The notes beneath the pieces were generated by a model that saw only the letters and a program-made list of their open reading frames with translations, was not told where the DNA came from and ran no database searches. From the IMG/VR virus record IMGVR_UViG_3300027365_000009, positions 64,001 to 128,000 of that record: a stretch of 64,000 bases of DNA. One strand, given 5' to 3'. Shown here one piece after another: positions 1,010-60,804 of the stretch. The position numbers were made by a program, and so were the translations under genes. The DNA comes from a virus. Within the stretch, counting starts at the first letter, position 1. Each line of letters begins with the position of its first letter.

Positions 1010-4000
1010 TTAGACTGCTGGTGCAATGGTACCTTCGTCGTTGACCCAATCCCCTGCGGCTTCGTCGTAGTAGACGCCGAGTTGATCGAGCAGGAAGGTT
1101 TCCAGGGCTACTGGGGTGACCGCTTTATCGACCACAGTGGTATTGGGTTGCATGTCAGCTGTCGCATCAGCAAAGCCCAGCGGTACCCAAGTCCCATCAC
1201 CTTTCCGCACATACGTCAGAGTCGGGTCGGTATCGGGCACCTCCTCCACTTCGGCAGTCAGGATTGCCCAGGCACCGTCAATACGAACGTATTGCTGTCC
1301 ATCGACAGGGGCTTCTTCCACCTCAGCGGTTTGGACTTCCCAGAGACCATTCTTACGCACGTAAGCCTGATTGTCCTCTGGAGCCTCTTCCACTTCAGCG
1401 GTCAGCACTGCCCATTCGGCATTCAGACGCACATACTGTTGGCCGTCTTGAGGGGCCTCGTAGACGGTACCGCCACCCAGGTAACCCATCGCGGACCAAG
1501 TGGTATCAGAGACCTTCTGGAACCACTGGTTAGTGACTGAGTTGATGGCGAAGTCGCCGATGTCCCCAGTCACGGCGTCGGGGTCGTAATCCCGGGCGAT
1601 CCAGCGGTTACCGTTGAGGCTATCCAGCCAGTCGATCTCAGTACCCACATAGTCAGGGTACTGTTCGAGATAGACTTCATATGCTGACGGACCCCGAATA
1701 TCGCCCATGTCGAGCCAGCTGCCCGCACTGGCTACCCACAGGAAGATGTGATCACCCACCTGGTAGGCTTCACCCTGGAAACTCCCCGCCGTAGGCAGGT
1801 CGGCTTGAGATGCCAATTCGCCTTCGATGATGATACCCAAGGCATCGGCGCCCTGTGGACCTTGGAGGCTATCTAACCACTCCTGCTCGGTCCCAGTGAA
1901 GCCCGCATCGACAGCCACTTGGTAAGCGGACTTACCCTGGAAACCGATCAGGCTATCCAACCACTCCTGACGAGTCCCGACGAAGCCTTCATTAACCGCC
2001 ACTTCATACGCGGAGTAACCGCGCGGACCGACGAGCGTGTCGAGCCATTCTGCCTTGGTTCCGGAGAACCCTTCGGCTACAGCAATGGCGTAGGCACTAT
2101 CGCCTTGGGCACCCTTGATCGACTCGAGCCACTCGGCTTCAGTGCCCACGAACCCACCAGCAACCGCGATGTCGTAGTTGCTGTCACCCTTGTCACCTTT
2201 GAGGGAATCCAGGAACTCCTGTTCGGTGCCCACAAAACCATTATCGAGGGCCACGGCGTAGGCATCACCCCCCTTCAGGGAGTCCAACCATTCGGTTTCA
2301 GTACCTGAGAAGCCCTGCTCAACAGCCACCTCATACGCGGAGGGACCTTCCAGCGACTCAAGCCATTCGGCTTCGGTACCTGTGAAGCCACCAGATACCG
2401 CAGCATCATAGGCTGACGGACCCGTATCGCCTTGGATACCCTGATCGCCCTGCGGGCCTTTCACAGTGCCCAGGTTCTTCCACTGGTCGTTGACCCAAGC
2501 GTACAGGTCCTCACCCACTAGATAACCTTCACCAACGGTACCGGAGGTGGGAAGCTCACCAGTGGTTGCGACACTGTCCACGATATTCAGGCTCGGACCG
2601 GGGTCGCCCATGTCACCCTGCGGACCTTGAGGGCCTTGGGGACCGACCAGCGACTCCAACCACTCACCGGCCGTACCAGTGAAGCCGTTGGCTACAGCCA
2701 CCTGGTAAGCATCATCACCTACCAGTGATGCCAACCATTCACTGCGGGTTCCGGTGAAGCCATCAGCCACTGCGACGTCGAAGGCATCCCCACCCTTGAG
2801 GGATTCGAGCCACTGACCCACACTGCCCGAGAAGCCGTTTTCCACCGCCTGCTCGTAGGCAGACGCGCCGACCAGGCTATCCAGCCACTCTTGTTGAGTA
2901 CCCACGAAGCCTTGATCCAGTGCTACCTGGAAGGCGCTATCCCCGGCCAGCGGACCAGCATTGACCCACTCACCTGCCAGACGCAGATACAGGTCAGACC
3001 CTGCCACGTAGGCTTCGCCGTCTGCACTGTCAGTCGGGAGGTCAGCTTCCGTCGCCACCACACCGGTGATGTTCAGGCCAGTGCCCATCGGACCCGCCGG
3101 ACCTTGCGGGCCGACCAGGGTATCGAGCCACTCTTGCTCGGTACCACTGAACCCCGTGGAGAGAGCCACTTCATAGGCGGACTTGCCAACCAGGGTCTGG
3201 AGCCACTGAGTCTCAGTACCATTGAATCCCTGGTCTTGAGCGTGTTCAAAGGCCGACTTACCGGTAGCGCCTTGGAGGCTGTCCAGGAACTCTTGCTCCG
3301 TTCCCACGAAACCGTTCTGCACCGCTACGGAATAGACGGAGTCGCCCTCGAGGGTACTCAGCCAGTCGCTTTCCGTGCCCTGGAAGCCATTGTTAACGGC
3401 AACGTGATAGGCGCTGTCACCATCATCACCCTTGGGACCCTGAACCCCCTGGATGCCTTGCTCGCCCTGAGGACCGACAACAGGACCCACGTCCAGCCAC
3501 TGGGAGTCGTCCCAGACGTAAAGGTTCTCACCAATGAAGTAGGCATCGCCCGGGGCGTTACCTGATGCCGGAAGGTCGCCCACAGCGGCGACTTTGCCCA
3601 GGACCTTGATGGCCGCAGACGGTTCACCCTTGGGACCTTGAACCCCTTGGATACCCTGATCCCCCTGAGGACCAACGAGGCTATCGAGCCATTCGGCGCG
3701 GGTGCCGGTATAGCCATCAGCCACGGCCACTTCGTAGGCATCGCCCCCTTTCAGGGAGTTAATAAAATCCTGTTCGGTACCCACGAATCCGGTGGAGAGG
3801 GCGACCTGATAGGCGCTATCACCAATCAGGCTGTCGAGCCACTCACTCACGCTGCCAGCAAAGCCATTAGCCAGGGCCAGTTGGTAGGCGCTGTCACCTT
3901 CCAGGTCTGCCAGCCACTTCTGGACGGTGCCTTCATAGCCCTGCTCCACGGCCAGGACATAGGCCGACTTACCGTCCGGACCGGTCTGACCGACAGGCTC

Positions 4001-15012: not shown

Positions 15013-15933
15013 ATCACCAACCCCCGCAGGGATGTCGTGGTCAATGTACACCTGAATGGCCAGGGTATCCGGATCAAGCGCATTACCTTCCACACGGAAA
15101 CTGGTATCGACTTCCCCGGTAAAGGGAGGTTGACCCAATTGTTTCGCACGCTTCTTGCGTTGCTTGTCCGACCATCCCGCCAGTTCTTGGAGGGATTCTG
15201 AGAGGTCCTCAAATTCCCCGTGGTAGAAACACTCCACACGACTGACCGTACCGACCACCTTCGCTCGGGGTGTCATCGCTGACAGACGCCGTAACGTATC
15301 GAGTGCGGCGTCGTCAAATAACGGATTCTCGGCAGTCTCCGGATCTTCAATCGTACATAAGATTGTCTCGAGGTCAACGTGATCACCCTCTTTAACGAGA
15401 CCTGAGACACTTTGGTCGAACTTCACCTGAATAGTTCGTACCTCCGTGGTCTGGGTGGTCATCTTTTTGGCCATGGCCTCAGAGATCACCGAGCCATCTT
15501 CCAGCGTGTCAATGTTGTCGATCAATGCAGTACGACAAAGGGCTCCCGGCTTTAACGTCACCTGACCAGGATTGAACACATCGGGGGTGAAGTACTTTCG
15601 GTTATAGGCAATGACATCGCCTTGGTTAACCTTATCCCCTTTCTTGAAGTCAGTGACGACCTCGTGCGGGTAAGTTACCCCGGCCGCTTTACCGTAGCGC
15701 TTCCCCAACTCGACCTTCTTGACACTTCCATCTGTATACGTCACGGTAATGGCGGTCTTGGTAACATCAGTGACCTTACCATCGGCCTCCGCCGTGGCCG
15801 CAAACAGATCCGTCATTCGGTGCGGAATGACCTGTTCATAGCCTGTCCGGAGTGGAATCGGCTCATACCCATCAGCATACACACTCTGTTGATTCTGGAT
15901 AGCGACAAAATTTATTCTTTTTGCATCGTCATG
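15013..15933 (-). CDS. rpoB: Virion RNA polymerase beta-like subunit, exon 2
   Basis: HDDAKRINFVAIQ (cf. bacterial beta HDDANRALM), LEDGSVISE, ends AGVGD; 921 nt in frame. Confidence 0.9.
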
Positions 15934-17994
15934 CAACTATGTTCAGTTACACCGCTACGTGTAACCCGCGATCCGATTGCTGTGAGGCAACCGAACGCTG
16001 CTCTAGGTCTCCCTAGAAGTTCAGACCATATCTTCTTCCCTTTTAAGGAAGCCTCCCATTTCGGAATCGCTTGATTCCTACTCCCCTGCCGGGGATGGTC
16101 GTTGAACGTTCCCCGTAGGCGCTCTAGGAGCGCCCGTAGGGGCTTCGCTGCTAAAGGGGGTCTTAGACCCCACGGTTGTCCATTGCTGCTCTTGGAGAGC
16201 TTTATCCGTCCCGTTGTTAGACCGTCGACGTCTGCTTTCGCGACGCCTGTGGTGGGACAGCTTTAGGAGTTCCCAGCAATTAGAGAGGTTATCATTCTGA
16301 AATTTCTTTCAGAAGGGACCATGTCGAGTTCATTCCCAATCTTCTTTTGAAGACAGTTTACGAACCTGCGTACCTTTACTATGCACTTCCTTACAGCTCT
16401 GACGCAACCAACTGAACATGGTAGATTTACCCACCCCTATCGCCGTGGCTGCTTCAGTTATACTTCCATAACAGGACACCACTCCTGTAGTAACATCTCT
16501 AACTTCGACGGGTTCTTTATTATTAGGCGCTTCGAGAATTTCTTCTTCGGAAACGTCGCGCCATGGAGACGCATCACTCTTTTTCTTTATTAAAAACCGA
16601 CAATCCCATAACGGCTGTCCGGCAGCTGCAATACGTCGAGTCATTTGTGGTTTAGAAATACCAAGGGCGTGTGCGGCGTCTTTCTGCCTCTCGTATTCCT
16701 TTACTTCGCCACTTACAACGTCTTTAACAAGAACCTTATTGCTGCGACCATAGAGTTGAAGTTCTCGTTCGGGATCGTCTACTTTTCTCCACGGCGTTGG
16801 GTCGTTCTTAAATTTCATTAAAACACCAGGTGGTATGAGGGGCTGATTTTTTCTCTTTAGCCAATAAACCACCGTATTACCCGATACGCCAAATGCTTCA
16901 CCACACTTGTGCATACTCTCATAGGTGGTTATTTCGCCTGTATACACATTCTTAACATCGACCCGACGTTCCCACTTTTCAAAAAGAGGTTCTGTGGCTA
17001 AATCCACATCACGCCACGGGGTTAAATCCGATTTGAATTTAACTTGTATATTACCGACGAAGACGGGCTGGTTAGGGCGTTTAAGATAATCATTAATGAC
17101 CCAAATATCCACCCCTAACTCTTTAGCGCATTGAAGTTTTGAATTATATTCCCTTACGATATTTTCATCCAAATACCGCACCAGAACAGGTTGGGGGGCA
17201 TTAGTAGTATTCTCTCTAATTTTACCTCTATCGCGCGTTGTATTCCACGCATGGATATGATTTTCACTCACTGTTGTCCATTCGAGGTTATCCAACCCGT
17301 CGTTGCCTGGAATACCATCAATATGGTTAACGTGTAATTGTTTATAGTTATTGGGGTAATTCGAATACGCCAACATCATTGCGCGATGCCGACCTAGGTT
17401 TGTCCTTCGATTGTCACTATCGCGTTTTATTTGATAGATAACGTAACCACTATCCATGACTGAATAGGGTGCAACTTCCCCACTCAGTACATGTATCACC
17501 ACACCTTCCCGATTTATTGCATATTGGGTATAATCGGGAATATAAGCGTAGCCTGGCCGAAGGAATGGCTCAAGTCCATTCGGTATTTTAAAATGTAAAT
17601 TATTAGGGTGGTGATTGGTGAGATCACCATCGTCGAAGCCCACCTCAATGAGATGCCAGAATTCTACTGGTATCCATATTGAGTTAAAAGTGAATGCGAT
17701 AAGTCTCGCCACTTTATGGGGTTTGATGTTACCTAGCCAACTGACTTTAGTCCAACGCAAGCCATCTCGGTCAGGGTATGTGTTAATAACCCGTTCCTTC
17801 TTACCTGTGACTTCGCCAAGTCGACTAACAAACAATGTTGCGGTGCTGTAAGGTACTGGCAGTAAGGCATTATCGTCGTAAAACATAGGGCATCCGTTGG
17901 TTGACTGAGATATGCTCATAAAGTTACTTAGGTGAGTGAAAACACACCGAAACTAAATTTCATACTCGTCCAACGGATGGTAACTCAAACGTTA
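15934..17994 (-). mobile_element. Mobile group I intron (2061 nt) with homing endonuclease ORF in the L1 loop
   Basis: Starts UAA after exon ...GCGGAU; IGS UCGACAUGGUCC after the ORF pairs with the exon 1 end (P1, U.G) and exon 2 CAUGACGA (P10); P/Q/R/S core at ~16020-16290 with P7 GACCA/UGGUC; omega-G at 15934. Confidence 0.92.
16330..17919 (-). CDS. Intron-encoded HNH homing endonuclease with C-terminal NUMOD1/IENR1-like repeats
   Basis: HRAMMLAY...HVNHIDGIPGNDGLDNLEWTTVSENHIHA; four VxVxxxxxGxxxxYxSxxxxAxxxG repeats; AT-rich relative to flanks; alternative start at 17886. Confidence 0.88.
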   Translation of the reverse strand: MSISQSTNGCPMFYDDNALLPVPYSTATLFVSRLGEVTGKKERVINTYPDRDGLRWTKVSWLGNIKPHKVARLIAFTFNSIWIPVEFWHLIEVGFDDGDLTNHHPNNLHFKIPNGLEPFLRPGYAYIPDYTQYAINREGVVIHVLSGEVAPYSVMDSGYVIYQIKRDSDNRRTNLGRHRAMMLAYSNYPNNYKQLHVNHIDGIPGNDGLDNLEWTTVSENHIHAWNTTRDRGKIRENTTNAPQPVLVRYLDENIVREYNSKLQCAKELGVDIWVINDYLKRPNQPVFVGNIQVKFKSDLTPWRDVDLATEPLFEKWERRVDVKNVYTGEITTYESMHKCGEAFGVSGNTVVYWLKRKNQPLIPPGVLMKFKNDPTPWRKVDDPERELQLYGRSNKVLVKDVVSGEVKEYERQKDAAHALGISKPQMTRRIAAAGQPLWDCRFLIKKKSDASPWRDVSEEEILEAPNNKEPVEVRDVTTGVVSCYGSITEAATAIGVGKSTMFSWLRQSCKEVHSKGTQVRKLSSKEDWE

Positions 17995-20900
17995 ATCCGC
18001 ACAGGGTGCCGCTAAGGTACTGGAAGAGAGCAGTTTGGTGGGCCCATCTTCCTTTGGATCAAACCGCCGTGTTTGCCCCCGGAGGTTGGTGAAGTTGGCA
18101 TCCGGTGAGAGATACGCCACCACCCCCACGTCTCCCGAATCAACGGTGGACTCACTGACGACCCCCAGATCCGACTTGTGGTATTTCCGGGTACGTTCCA
18201 CCATCGATTTGCCACCACGACCACCATCACCTCGGTAAGACATGACCTCCTGCTCACGCATATTGGCAAAGGGGTTGGTGTCCTCTACTAGCGAGACCGA
18301 TGGATCTTGCACGATCTTCTGCCAGACAGCATGTGGGTTGAGTTCAACCGCATGATCGCCCATTCCGGCTTTGGCATTAAATGTTTTCGCCGCCCGTGCA
18401 AGTTCACCATACACCATTCCAGCGAAGCGCTCATAGCCGCGATAGCGCATGTACGCACCGTCTACTTCTTCCGGTGAGAAGTCCGTTTGTAGGAGTTCCA
18501 CACCACGTAGGAGCAAGGGACCAAATTCGGTGGGCTCGCCCATCTCTTCCAATAGACCACGGGTGATGGGATCGACCCAGGCTTGGAACAGGGCATCGAT
18601 TTCACGAAGATACCGTACGCCAAGCCCCGCGTCCTCTAGAATGCGATAATAGACGTCTTGACGGTCAAAGTCCCACACGCTGAATTGTTTCAAGGACTGA
18701 TGATACCGATTGAAGCCCGCCATCACCATCATGGCTTTCTTGTCCAGTCGTGAGAACACCAGCGTCTCGTCCTGGAAAACGATACGGTATTCATCTGACG
18801 TATACGGGATATGCTCGCCACGTTTAAAGCGGCTCACCGATGCCCCTACCATCTTAATGAGTTCCGCCAGGCCGAACCGGTAGGCCAACACCACCCCGAC
18901 TGGCAAACTTTTGTTTGCCACGGTCATATCCACCACTTCTAGCGGGGCTTTTCCCAAATCCAATCCCAAGACATCATGAATCGTGCCTGCAACCTCAGTA
19001 CCTTCCTCTGTCACGACGTAAAACACATCGTTATGGTCCACTAAAAGGGGCACATTCCGGTAACGTCCCACGACCACCAGGTCATCGGTCTCGTGGTCAC
19101 TGACGTCAAACCCGGCGGTCTCTTTGAAATGCTTCTCTCGGGAATGATAATCCAAGTAGAAATGGTAATCCCCACTTTTAAATGCACTCATTCGACTGGC
19201 GAGGATCGAATACACTCGGGGGAGGTCCAGGCTTTTATCGAACACATTGGATAGTCTGACATCCCCAATATGATCGTTATCCTGGTCCAGTCCCTGTTCG
19301 GTGATCTGCGCCGTCAACCACTTCGCGTAATTATTGGTCACGCGTTCACTGCGATCCAAGAACGTCTTGTTATAGTACGACGTTAACGCCACACGGTGGG
19401 GATGAACCTTCCGTAAAGGAACGTCAACCCGTTGAAGTCTTAGTCGATTTGACACCCCGTTAGAGATGAACCGTCCATCGTCATCCACCACAGGCAGGCG
19501 AAAACGAACCGTTGACTGACGTCCTCTCACGGGCTTCAGCGTCACCGTATGGACTTCGTAGTGGTTCATGGTGTCTTGAACGGTTTCGACACTATAATCT
19601 TTAACGGCAATCCCCTGTTGCTGAATCGCCAAAACGGATGACACCACATCCTTGTGCATGACATTACGCAGATACTGTTGGTTCATTACCTTCAGTTTGG
19701 AATGTAGCATGGACTTATCGGGGATGGTGTCTCGATCGGGGAACGCCGGAATGTCCGGTAGGGCGAGATCCTCCTGAGATACCTCCAGAAGCGTTTCTAG
19801 GGACTGCCCTGACCCGTAGGGGTCTTTGAGCTTCTTGTACGTCTCAGCGTCCTGTATGGCCCTCTGATAGGCTTTCCCTGACATCAGCCCGATATCGTGC
19901 AATTCCCACGCTTTCTTGGCGATCGGCTGGGTCAGGCGTTCTTCCGTTCCTACCGGCTCAACCTCAATGGGATCGTCCTGGTCAGCAACGTTGGGGAGAC
20001 TAACCTCACTGTTATCGGGACCGTCGGATTCGCGTCCATCAAACGCCGGTTGGGGAACCAACGGATCACTGACCGGTTCGGGCAGTACCAGGTCGTCATC
20101 AAGCCCGTTAAGAAGACTTAAACCGAACGACTCGTCGGGAGTCGATGCCTGGGCCGTTGATGTCTCGGTATCATCCGTTTGGGATGCTGGGGTATCTGAC
20201 GATGGAGTCGATGATGTGGTAGGCGCTGCCTTGGTCTGGGCGGGGCCTTCGTTTCGATCGAGTTGGGTGACACCACCGACCAGGTCGCGTAGTCCATGGA
20301 GTAGACGGAGGAAATACCTCTGTAATGTACTTGCGCTAAGGCCAGAGTCCTGGTCATCATCTTTCTCCTTCCGCCACTCGTTGAGTTTCCCCAAATTAAT
20401 GACAAAGAAGTAGCCCTTTACCTTAATCAGGTAATTGACATGGTCGATGGCGTCGTCAGACAGGACACTTAACGATGACAACTCCCGATCATCCGAAAGC
20501 CACAACCACAGGTCCAGAATGTTGAGTTCGGCAGGCCCTGAAAAAGCCGCCAGTGACTTCTGGGTGATGGTCCGTTCAATCCGTTTGAAGTCCTCAAACG
20601 TCGGAATGCGATCCGGGAGATGGAGGTCCACAAACTGGTGACGTTTAAACCGCCGATGGGTGGCTTCCACGTTATCCCAGAAGGTCCGAGCCACGTTCTT
20701 CCACCGGAAGTATTCCGCCTTATAGGAAGGGATATACCGATAGAGGTGAGAGAGCAGTGCGTAATTCACCACCAGCAGGTTCTTGGGGTTAATGGTGAGG
20801 GCCTGGTCTTTCCGCAGTGGCTTGAACAGACGGTTCTTACGCCGGTATTCGTTCTCCATCATCCGGGCATTGAACACGGTCCTACGTGGACCACCTTCGA

Positions 20901-21135
20901 GATGCCGTAACTCATGGAGGTGTTCGATGAAAATCCGACCTCCTACGTCAGAAAAGATCGGGTCTTGAGGGTTGGGACCATAGCTCACCGTGTCGTCCGG
21001 CCAGAAATGGTACACGCTTTCCAGCGGGAAGGTGAGTTGGTTAATTGGCGTCAGGTGGGGCTTCATCAGTTGGTTACGGTGACGTACCCCAACCTGACGA
21101 TAATACTGTGGATATTTTAACCGCATGGGACTCAT
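17995..21135 (-). CDS. rpoB: Virion RNA polymerase beta-like subunit (gp178-like), exon 1; spliced product ~1432 aa
   Basis: GDGGRGGKSMVERTRKYHKSDLGVVSESTVDSGDVGVVAYL (beta region D-like); 1047+307+78 aa join in frame. Confidence 0.9.
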
Positions 21136-60747: not shown

Positions 60748-60804
60748 ATATACCCTCCCCAATATGGGGAGGGAGTCTATGCCGATAAGAAAAAGGAACA
60801 CGTA

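Follow-up and report, generated by a model that had tools for sequence, protein, structure and literature searches.

A group I intron in a giant-phage genome raises the question of what ten intron nucleotides do when they have two possible partners: the ribosome-binding site of the intron's own endonuclease gene, and the end of the exon upstream. The original prediction described both pairings, termed fold B and fold A, and joined them in one device coupling splicing to endonuclease translation. The locus lies in a window of 64,000 nucleotides (positions 64,001 to 128,000 of IMG/VR record IMGVR_UViG_3300027365_000009), and its features are collected in Table 1. The folding calculations suggest that the most likely role of the 10-bp fold B helix is to hide the ribosome-binding site in front of a selfish endonuclease gene within a giant-phage RNA polymerase intron, much as in T4.

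Table 1. Positions of the intron features within the window
Feature	Position	Strand	Remarks
Group I intron, whole, 2061 nt	15934..17994	-	splice sites after U17995 (5') and G15934 (3')
Exon 1 end	17995..18000	-	last four bases form the P1 5' strand; also the fold A 5' strand
In-frame UAA stop, first intron bases	17992..17994	-	ORF 21135..17992 terminates here
Fold A hairpin	17973..18000	-	6 bp + 4 bp, CC bulge, -8.7 kcal/mol
Fold B upstream (anti-SD) arm	17970..17979	-	perfect 10-mer complement of 17900-17891
TATG no. 1	17961..17964	-	G 75 nt before start codon
Small apical hairpin of leader stem-loop	17931..17948	-	minimum-energy folds
TATG no. 2 (contains "AUG 17919")	17917..17920	-	G 31 nt before start codon
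Fold B downstream arm	17891..17900	-	contains SD-like GGA (17895-17893)
HNH homing-endonuclease gene, 518 aa	16330..17886	-	AUG 17886; stop UGA 16332-16330
Ribozyme core (P2-P9)	16001..16348	-	Rfam RF00028, 59.0 bits, E=2.8e-13
Internal guide sequence	16316..16323	-	read from sequence; location kept in relatives
P2 hairpin	16296..16313	-

The intron, its host gene and its endonuclease

The gene interrupted by the intron (17994-15934, minus strand) is a phiKZ-type virion RNA polymerase gene. The splice sites are fixed by homology: tblastn matches to Noxifer gp195 and PA7 gp189 stop at 17995 and restart at 15933. The terminal base of exon 1 is U and that of the intron is G. By its sequence, the element is a group I intron with a homing-endonuclease ORF in loop L1, a distant guide and predicted splicing activity. 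On this anatomy the original prediction agrees with the Rfam model (RF00028, gathering score 50), tblastn and Pfam. An in-frame stop at the intron start is usual for phage group I introns (PMC3073962).

The guide satisfies both exons. Bases 16319-16316 complement exon-1 GGAU with U.G at the splice site, and 16323-16320 complement the first four bases of exon 2 (P10); the whole guide, 16323-16316, shows 8-nt complementarity to the ligated exons, with U.G at the junction. Of the six relatives inspected, five have the guide motif immediately 5' of P2, and it is not evident in the sixth (L009). The true P1 is predicted to be weak, with 6 bp and about -4 kcal/mol. Neither a terminator nor a sigma-70 promoter was found in 17700-18200.

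The 5' splice site and the guide flank the endonuclease ORF. Judged from sequence, its product is an HNH, I-HmuI-like nicking homing endonuclease with an HNH motif and NUMOD DNA-binding repeats. Pfam matches include NUMOD1 (37.9 bits, cut-off 22.8) and the I-HmuI NUMOD-like family (33.4 bits, cut-off 27); the HNH_3 match (22.4 bits) falls slightly under its cut-off of 24.8, and the N-H...N..H columns are invariant in the alignment. The real start is AUG 17886, as read from homologue N-termini, which align to its Met, and from the protein-collection gene call, likewise of 518 aa. The N-terminal alignments rule out AUG 17919 as the start; this "AUG" is probably part of a TATG motif rather than a start codon. 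An 11-codon mini-ORF from AUG 17963 is without a convincing SD.

The closest relative of the endonuclease among 5.8 billion proteins is 32% identical, a search of IMG/VR with the single endonuclease protein gave no match, and a degenerate leader pattern had no metagenome match. Because the collections searched hold no orthologue of this exact intron, the fold B helix is without covariation support.

A predicted helix over the endonuclease ribosome-binding site

All coordinates of the original prediction were confirmed on the minus strand, and the two arms of fold B (17979-17970 and 17900-17891) are perfect 10-nt complements. As originally described, AUG 17919 and the TATG at 17964-17961 lie between them, and the SD-like GGA lies in the downstream arm, 6 nt before AUG 17886. 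The global minimum-energy fold predicted for the 2261-nt pre-mRNA contains fold B, in which the outermost of the ten pairs has a probability of 0.68 and the other nine reach 0.97-1.0. The predicted P(unpaired) of the endonuclease SD is 0.00; across 119 genes from this phage the median is 0.38, and the endonuclease SD ranks at the 3rd percentile. A shuffled-leader control for this masking gave p=0.02. In silico, the SD is base-paired on the long transcript, as in a T4-type gate, and in this respect the predicted masking was borne out. The helix belongs to an irregular stem-loop of 89 nt with about 27 pairs and bulges, and its loop, at 69 nt, exceeds that of most relatives.

On balance, we consider it probable that the 10-bp helix is the local version of a leader stem-loop that precedes L1 endonuclease genes in the group I introns of phiKZ-like jumbo phages. 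If so, both arms would be present on read-through RNA from the RNA-polymerase gene, and the excised intron would keep both too. The helix, if it forms in vivo, would pair the weak SD so that ribosomes do not load and translation is blocked. Such masking would matter for splicing: with just 6 nt separating the end of the endonuclease ORF from the guide, a translating ribosome would occupy the bases needed for P1, P10 and P2. The endonuclease would probably be made from a shorter RNA begun at a TATG between the arms, with G17917 preferred and G17961 possible; this transcript would lack the 5' arm, leaving the SD open.

The principal alternative, which we regard as unlikely, is that the inverted repeat arose by chance and does nothing, the weak SD by itself keeping the endonuclease low. 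Perfect 10-bp inverted repeats with loops of at most 100 nt are expected about 7.6 times per 64 kb, about nine distinct ones are present, and the 2.2-kb intron region holds five perfect repeats of at least 10 bp. Stability equal to that of fold B is reached by 20% of random 89-nt windows, and the z-score of the 18030-17860 fold is only -1.19. The fold B helix alone is close to chance; what rises above chance is its position over the SD. The SD itself is just GGA (-3.3 kcal/mol); 90% of the genes of this phage have a stronger one, and masking so weak a site may add little. Moreover, there is no orthologue to show conservation, and little masking is seen in four of 19 relatives (L008, L084, L091 and L097), where P(unpaired) is at least 0.32. 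Against a chance origin stand the specific position of the repeat, with the shuffled-leader result and the low rank among the phage's genes, and the same architecture in most of the 19 relatives, built from arm sequences that are unrelated from locus to locus.

Related jumbo-phage introns and the TATG motifs

The relatives comprise 19 further introns with an L1 ORF: ten from IMG/VR or cultured phages, eight from metagenomes, and PhiPA3 gp210. Their median SD accessibility is 0.16, and the masking is significant with the present locus left out (Mann-Whitney p=1.4e-4) and by combined shuffles (Fisher p=4e-5). Most of them have a short, simple hairpin with the SD at its centre. The endonuclease ORF of the relatives extends through the guide and P2.

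TATG, with its G as +1, is the late start motif of the phiKZ nvRNAP (PMC4666361, PMC12809450). In the present phage it is enriched about threefold at -40..-20 before genes. At this locus alone, a TATG between the arms has a chance p of 0.39. Among the relatives, a TATG from which the transcript would lack the upstream arm occurs in 12 of 19 as compared to 3.8 expected (P=2e-5; P=4.5e-4 for placement with three homologous leaders merged), and 16 of the 24 ATGs in their windows are preceded by T (p=0.005). The start G lies 13-52 nt upstream of the AUG, mostly 19-38, and in the folding model transcripts begun there leave the SD accessible. No TATG occurs in the stretch searched in PhiPA3, Goslar or three further relatives. 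Within the hairpin itself, 2050HW gp101 and EL gp185 carry a TATG, and PhiPA3 gp210, Goslar gp069 and HPP-Temi lack one. Taken together, sequence comparison and folding support the recurrence, in most of the 19 related introns, of an arrangement like that of I-TevI, in which the SD is masked and a TATG falls between the arms.

Here, RNA beginning at G17961 is predicted to raise SD accessibility from 0.00 to 0.59. Of the two candidate sites, G17917 is the likelier internal start, since its distance of 31 nt fits both the range of most relatives and the -40..-20 enrichment; either TATG would be a putative promoter. The original prediction of an internal late start is refined here: a candidate TATG between the arms recurs in most relatives, and the proposed site at 17961 gives way to the better candidate at G17917.

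In T4 I-TevI, a stable RNA structure sequesters the RBS and a late promoter yields a transcript that lacks the inhibitory strand (PMC2988022). When that hairpin is broken, ribosomes occupy the intron core and splicing is impaired (Gibb and Edgell 2010, as cited in PMC3073962). The present locus resembles the td/I-TevI gate, and those of I-TevII, I-TevIII, SegB and Aeh1 MobE, in that the endonuclease gene lies within a longer read-through transcript. It further resembles these gates in its predicted RBS-sequestering structure and in a candidate promoter, TATG, whose transcript would lack the inhibitory strand. The differences are several: an HNH/NUMOD enzyme in loop L1 rather than a GIY-YIG enzyme in P6; a presumed 4-nt promoter of the phage multisubunit RNAP rather than a T4 gp55 late promoter; a predicted stem that spans 69 nt, over a weak SD; and transcription that probably occurs in a ribosome-free phage nucleus. 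An operator in the style of I-TevI, a homing-site look-alike in the leader, was discarded, its best local alignment being no better than shuffles (p about 0.1).

The PhiPA3 gp210 intron (PMC11620839) interrupts the same virion RNAP beta gene. It carries a related HNH endonuclease (about 29% identity) in the same layout, in which the ORF precedes the ribozyme core and is followed by a GUCC guide, and its SD also lies within a hairpin. It differs in being inserted 9 nt further downstream, after HDD where the present intron precedes HDD, and in a hairpin loop without TATG. The gp210 paper (Birkholz et al. 2024, PMC11620839) presents this jumbo-phage RNAP-intron homing endonuclease as a weapon between co-infecting phages and gives no account of leader structure, promoters or splicing control. 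The timing of expression of such endonucleases has not been described. The comparison suggests that most of these genes carry a gate of the T4 kind, in which the ribosome site is masked and the mask itself contains a start site; this gate appears to have been remodelled to use TATG, the unusual 4-base promoter that belongs to the polymerase of the phage itself. Concrete predictions follow for the cultured phages 2050HW, EL, HPP-Temi, Goslar and PhiPA3.

Phage RNase III sites generally look like long imperfect bulged stems. The leader stem-loop shares this form, and it might instead be an element of RNA processing or stability, such as a site for RNase III or RNase E serving to release or protect the endonuclease mRNA, rather than primarily a mask; we consider this very improbable, as neither sequence nor comparison points to processing and the short SD-centred hairpin of most relatives suits masking better.

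Fold A and the proposed splicing switch

In Tetrahymena, P(-1) is a helix that competes with P1. In T4 introns, translation of the upstream exon prevents nonproductive exon-intron pairings (PMC3073962). Fold A would likewise keep the 5' splice site from reaching the guide; it differs from these P1-competing helices in being a predicted minor species that is not conserved and whose effect on splicing is a proposed one. It pairs 18000-17995 with 17978-17973 and 17994-17991 with 17984-17981 in a 28-nt hairpin. Both folds use 17978-17973 and, as originally stated, are hence mutually exclusive. Fold A was rejected as the real P1, since in it the splice-site U would face an A; the distal guide, which is conserved in relatives, provides both U.G and a contiguous P10.

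The proposed toggle would have 17979-17970 alternate between fold A, with the splice site buried and P1 blocked, and fold B, with the endonuclease silent and the splice site free; as a corollary, a ribosome on the endonuclease gene would turn splicing off. We judge such a toggle very improbable. Beyond the shared segment, it draws on energetics: fold A is the minimum-energy fold for nascent RNA ending before 17900, and only for that RNA, and forced fold A and fold B ensembles are only 1.7 kcal/mol apart in a 161-nt context. With so weak a P1, a local competitor could matter, and PhiPA3, Goslar and EL also have local hairpins around the 5' splice site. However, fold A has a probability of 0.05-0.07 when folded locally, falling to 0.001 in the entire pre-mRNA, and its stability is an ordinary one, equalled by 5.9% of random 28-nt windows. 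Nor do the relatives repeat the arrangement: in none of the 11 examined does the anti-SD arm pair with the exon end, hairpins over the exon end are not enriched, and exon-end accessibility is unremarkable at 0.18-0.50.

The ribosome-driven step meets further objections. A ribosome on the endonuclease ORF would itself already block the guide directly, and one halted at UAA 17994-17992 would melt fold A. In phiKZ-type phages, transcription takes place inside a ribosome-free nucleus (PMC12908238). Four of eight ORFs compared with PDB strongly match the phiKZ virion proteins gp29, gp98, gp128 and gp182; none of these eight suitably sized ORFs of the 150-kb fragment, from a record about 51% complete, is a chimallin. 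By kinship, the present phage would form a nucleus, and ribosome-driven switching is unlikely for that reason. If transcription does occur in a ribosome-free nucleus, the question is raised of where splicing and endonuclease translation separate.

A splicing-translation switch would, if true, be the more interesting outcome. The anti-splicing role of fold A and the ribosome-driven toggle are not supported. It is likewise highly doubtful that the SD-masking arm has here also gained 5' splice-site pairing, making a bistable switch between self-splicing and endonuclease expression in a nucleus-forming phage. For the most part the shared complementarity was bound to arise, as exon end and SD are both GGAU: fold A exists because the exon ends in this SD-like sequence, pairable by any anti-SD strand, and it is probably an incidental, transient alternative.

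The intron and its endonuclease

The 149,876-bp IMG/VR record of which the window is part comes from an uncultured phiKZ-like jumbo phage, several large ORFs of which have very strong matches among phiKZ virion proteins (PHIKZ029, for one, at E=2e-244). The intron interrupts the gene for the beta-like subunit of virion RNA polymerase (RNAP; ~1450 aa; 44-58% identity to homologues, varying by exon), with U17995 as the last base of exon 1 and G15934 as the last base of the intron. Its internal ORF encodes an HNH/NUMOD homing endonuclease. All homologues of this endonuclease start at a Met aligning with AUG 17886, and the gene call in the protein collection likewise has the 518-aa form.

Coordinates of the intron, its host gene and the two alternative folds
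Feature	Position	Strand	Basis or remark
Virion RNAP beta-like gene, exons	21135-17995, 15933-15013, 14634-about 14413	minus	homology to Noxifer gp195 and PA7 gp189
Intron under study	17994 to 15934	minus	homology puts junction at ...AD/HDD...
Three group I cores	21754-21385, 16348-16001, 15029-14703		Rfam
Guide sequence	16323-16316	minus	3' of endonuclease ORF; read from sequence
Fold A	18000-17995 with 17978-17973, plus UAAC/GUUA	minus	exon-1 end; hairpin at 5' splice site
Fold B	17979-17970 with 17900-17891	minus	10-bp helix over the SD-like GGA

Guide bases 16319-16316 complement the last four bases of exon 1, with a U.G pair at the splice site, and bases 16323-16320 complement the first four bases of exon 2. 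The same short motif stands directly 5' of P2 in five of six relatives inspected. Because the guide lies 3' of the ORF, the ORF sits in loop L1 and P1 must close over ~1.67 kb, bearing out the distant guide sequence of the original prediction. A gap of 6 nt separates the endonuclease stop codon (16332-16330) from the guide. In related loci L004, L005, L007, L008 and L010 (PhiPA3) the ORF runs on through the guide and P2, reaching P3 in L008, a case of 'core creep' in which an L1 ORF extends into the ribozyme. Separately, a 13-nt long-range pair (16422-16410 with 15948-15936, minus strand; 92% complementary, 10 perfect bp) flanks the entire ribozyme core and adjoins the 3' splice site. Such a pair is near chance for a 2-kb region; from its placement, it could hold the 3' splice site.

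Predicted masking of the Shine-Dalgarno sequence

Two folds had been proposed to compete for the segment just inside the intron, and all of their coordinates are correct on checking against the sequence. They are mutually exclusive, as 17978-17973 is common to both. Fold A is predicted to be a 28-nt hairpin (-8.7 kcal/mol); fold B encloses an irregular 89-nt stem-loop (-27.7 kcal/mol, predicted). Taken singly, neither stands out: 64 kb should contain ~7.6 perfect 10-bp repeats with loops of up to 100 nt, 20% of random windows are as stable as fold B and 5.9% as fold A, and the z-score of the region is -1.19. In a 161-nt local context, pair probabilities are 0.65-0.94 for fold B and 0.05-0.07 for fold A. 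In the whole 2261-nt pre-mRNA, they are 0.97-1.0 for nine pairs of fold B, 0.68 for its outermost pair and 0.001 for fold A, and the global minimum-energy fold includes fold B.

As no orthologue of the intron was found in the collections searched, the same architecture was sought in relatives. IMG/VR, GenBank phages and metagenomes yielded 19 further introns with a related endonuclease ahead of the ribozyme core, including those of PhiPA3 gp210, Serratia phages 2050HW and Kodama, Pseudomonas phages EL and HPP-Temi, and Escherichia phage Goslar. Most lie within one of two virion RNAP genes, and two within the DNA polymerase gene. In most, the SD is predicted to be paired by a hairpin in the 50-100-nt leader (the stretch ahead of the endonuclease start codon), with arm sequences that vary between loci. 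Median predicted SD accessibility is 0.16 in the 20 leaders versus 0.38 in 119 genes of the phage under study (Mann-Whitney p=5e-5 including this locus; 1.4e-4 excluding it). When the leaders are shuffled upstream of their SDs, p is 0.02 at this locus and 4e-5 (Fisher-combined) for the relatives. These accessibility and shuffle statistics argue that SD masking characterises this family of introns and endonucleases. Fold B would be the version present at this locus, the segment between its arms being unusually long.

In the virion RNAP beta gene, three distinct intron insertion points fall within 9 nt at the same conserved ADHDD codons: AD/HDD in the window (17995/15933), one codon before the last D in L090 (about 125-131, 2395-2405), and after or near the last D (residues 1072-1077) in PhiPA3 (3413/4766) and at least seven other loci (L004, L005, L007, L008, L009, L085, L091). 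A related L1 endonuclease is present at each, which gives the region the look of a hot spot that introns have invaded independently. In the Goslar DNA-polymerase intron (L087, NC_048170.1), the 10-nt exon/intron junction at 1406-1415 is identical to window 18000-17991, and the endonuclease is related to that of the RNAP intron from residue 1. Both observations fit an intron that moved from one gene to another, with the short GUCC guide sequence directing it.

A candidate internal start site

In phiKZ, the motif TATG signals the late start site, its G being +1 (PMC4666361, PMC12809450). Taken by itself, the presence of a TATG between the arms here does not stand out from chance (p=0.39). Across the family, a TATG was counted if its G falls downstream of 3 or more nt of the 5' arm but upstream of the SD, with shuffled leaders as the null. 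Of the 20 leaders, 13 have such a TATG where 4.2 would be expected (P=1e-5), as do 12 of the 19 relatives (P=2e-5; 4.5e-4 with three clearly homologous leaders merged). Since 16 of 24 ATGs in the leader windows have T immediately before them (p=0.005), the signal is TATG, more than AUG alone. RNA begun at these G's has its SD opened in silico, accessibility here rising from 0.00 to 0.59. In the phage's own genome (G000), the 119 predicted genes show a ~3-fold excess of TATG 20-40 nt ahead of their start codons (19 hits versus ~7 expected), which suggests use of a phiKZ-type late start-site motif with short 5' UTRs.

An internal start between the arms, as originally proposed, is retained as a candidate, with its position refined. 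The first candidate, G17961, lies 75 nt upstream of the AUG, whereas G17917, in the TATG containing 'AUG 17919' and also between the arms, lies 31 nt upstream. In relatives the distance is 13-52 nt, mostly 19-38, making G17917 the better candidate.

At least eight leaders (window 17963-17954; L004, L007, L008, L085, L090, L095, L107) carry a short A/T-rich motif, (A/T)ATGAA(A/T), 17-50 nt past the 5' splice site and either 5' or 3' of the anti-SD arm, depending on the leader; it may be an extended start-site motif. Outside an intron, 60753-60790 (plus strand) has a similar promoter-in-hairpin look: a 7-bp hairpin, rich in G+C, whose loop contains TATG and in which a strong SD is paired (predicted), just 5' of an 8-codon ORF and upstream of a 158-aa ORF without Pfam match.

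Translation, splicing and the 5' splice site

The favoured mechanism would be a gate of the T4 I-TevI, I-TevII, I-TevIII, SegB and MobE type (PMC2988022). The family comparison (SD masking, TATG placement) supports this half of the original prediction, with 17886 as the start codon. The intron would be a further case of an already known kind of control, differing in endonuclease class, ORF position in L1, promoter type and compartmentalised host-virus cell biology. Leader hairpins or internal start sites of these endonuclease genes are not described in searchable jumbo-phage intron and transcription papers; the added value is that the pattern holds over a family with members amenable to experiment.

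On unspliced RNA, ribosomes engaged in endonuclease translation would cover bases required for P1, P10 and P2, given the proximity of stop codon and guide here and the passage of the ORF through guide and P2 in relatives with inspected 3' ends. The same conflict is shown experimentally for I-TevI: as Gibb and Edgell (2010) are summarised in PMC3073962, destroying the RBS hairpin puts ribosomes on core sequences and impairs splicing. By this analogy and the ORF-guide proximity, endonuclease translation and splicing are likely linked, through ribosome occupancy of the guide region rather than fold A.

The evidence does not support an anti-splicing role for fold A. It is the most favourable fold only while the nascent RNA stops short of the downstream arm; it is a minor species in all equilibrium calculations, and its stability is ordinary. 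The anti-SD arm pairs the exon end in none of 11 relatives examined, and exon-end accessibility across relatives is unremarkable. PhiPA3, Goslar and EL do have local splice-site hairpins, but built from other segments. Judged from the sequence, most of the cross-pairing is unavoidable: a GUCC guide requires an exon ending in GGAU, GGAU is also present in the SD region here, and any SD-masking strand therefore matches the exon end too. Beyond this match, fold A adds just two pairs plus the short UAAC/GUUA helix. Termination at UAA 17994-17992 would place a ribosome over fold A and melt it. Moreover, phiKZ-type phages transcribe within a protein nucleus that excludes ribosomes (PMC12908238, PMC11620839); ribosomes cannot act there on nascent pre-mRNA. 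For the phage under study a nucleus is suggested by kinship; its shell gene was not found in the available half-genome. Fold A is probably incidental.

In PhiPA3, a 16-bp hairpin (L010, about 3398-3432; four pairs G.U) joins the last 16 exon bases to the first intron bases and holds the 5' splice site of the gp210 intron in its apical loop, with pair probability about 1.0 in local folding.
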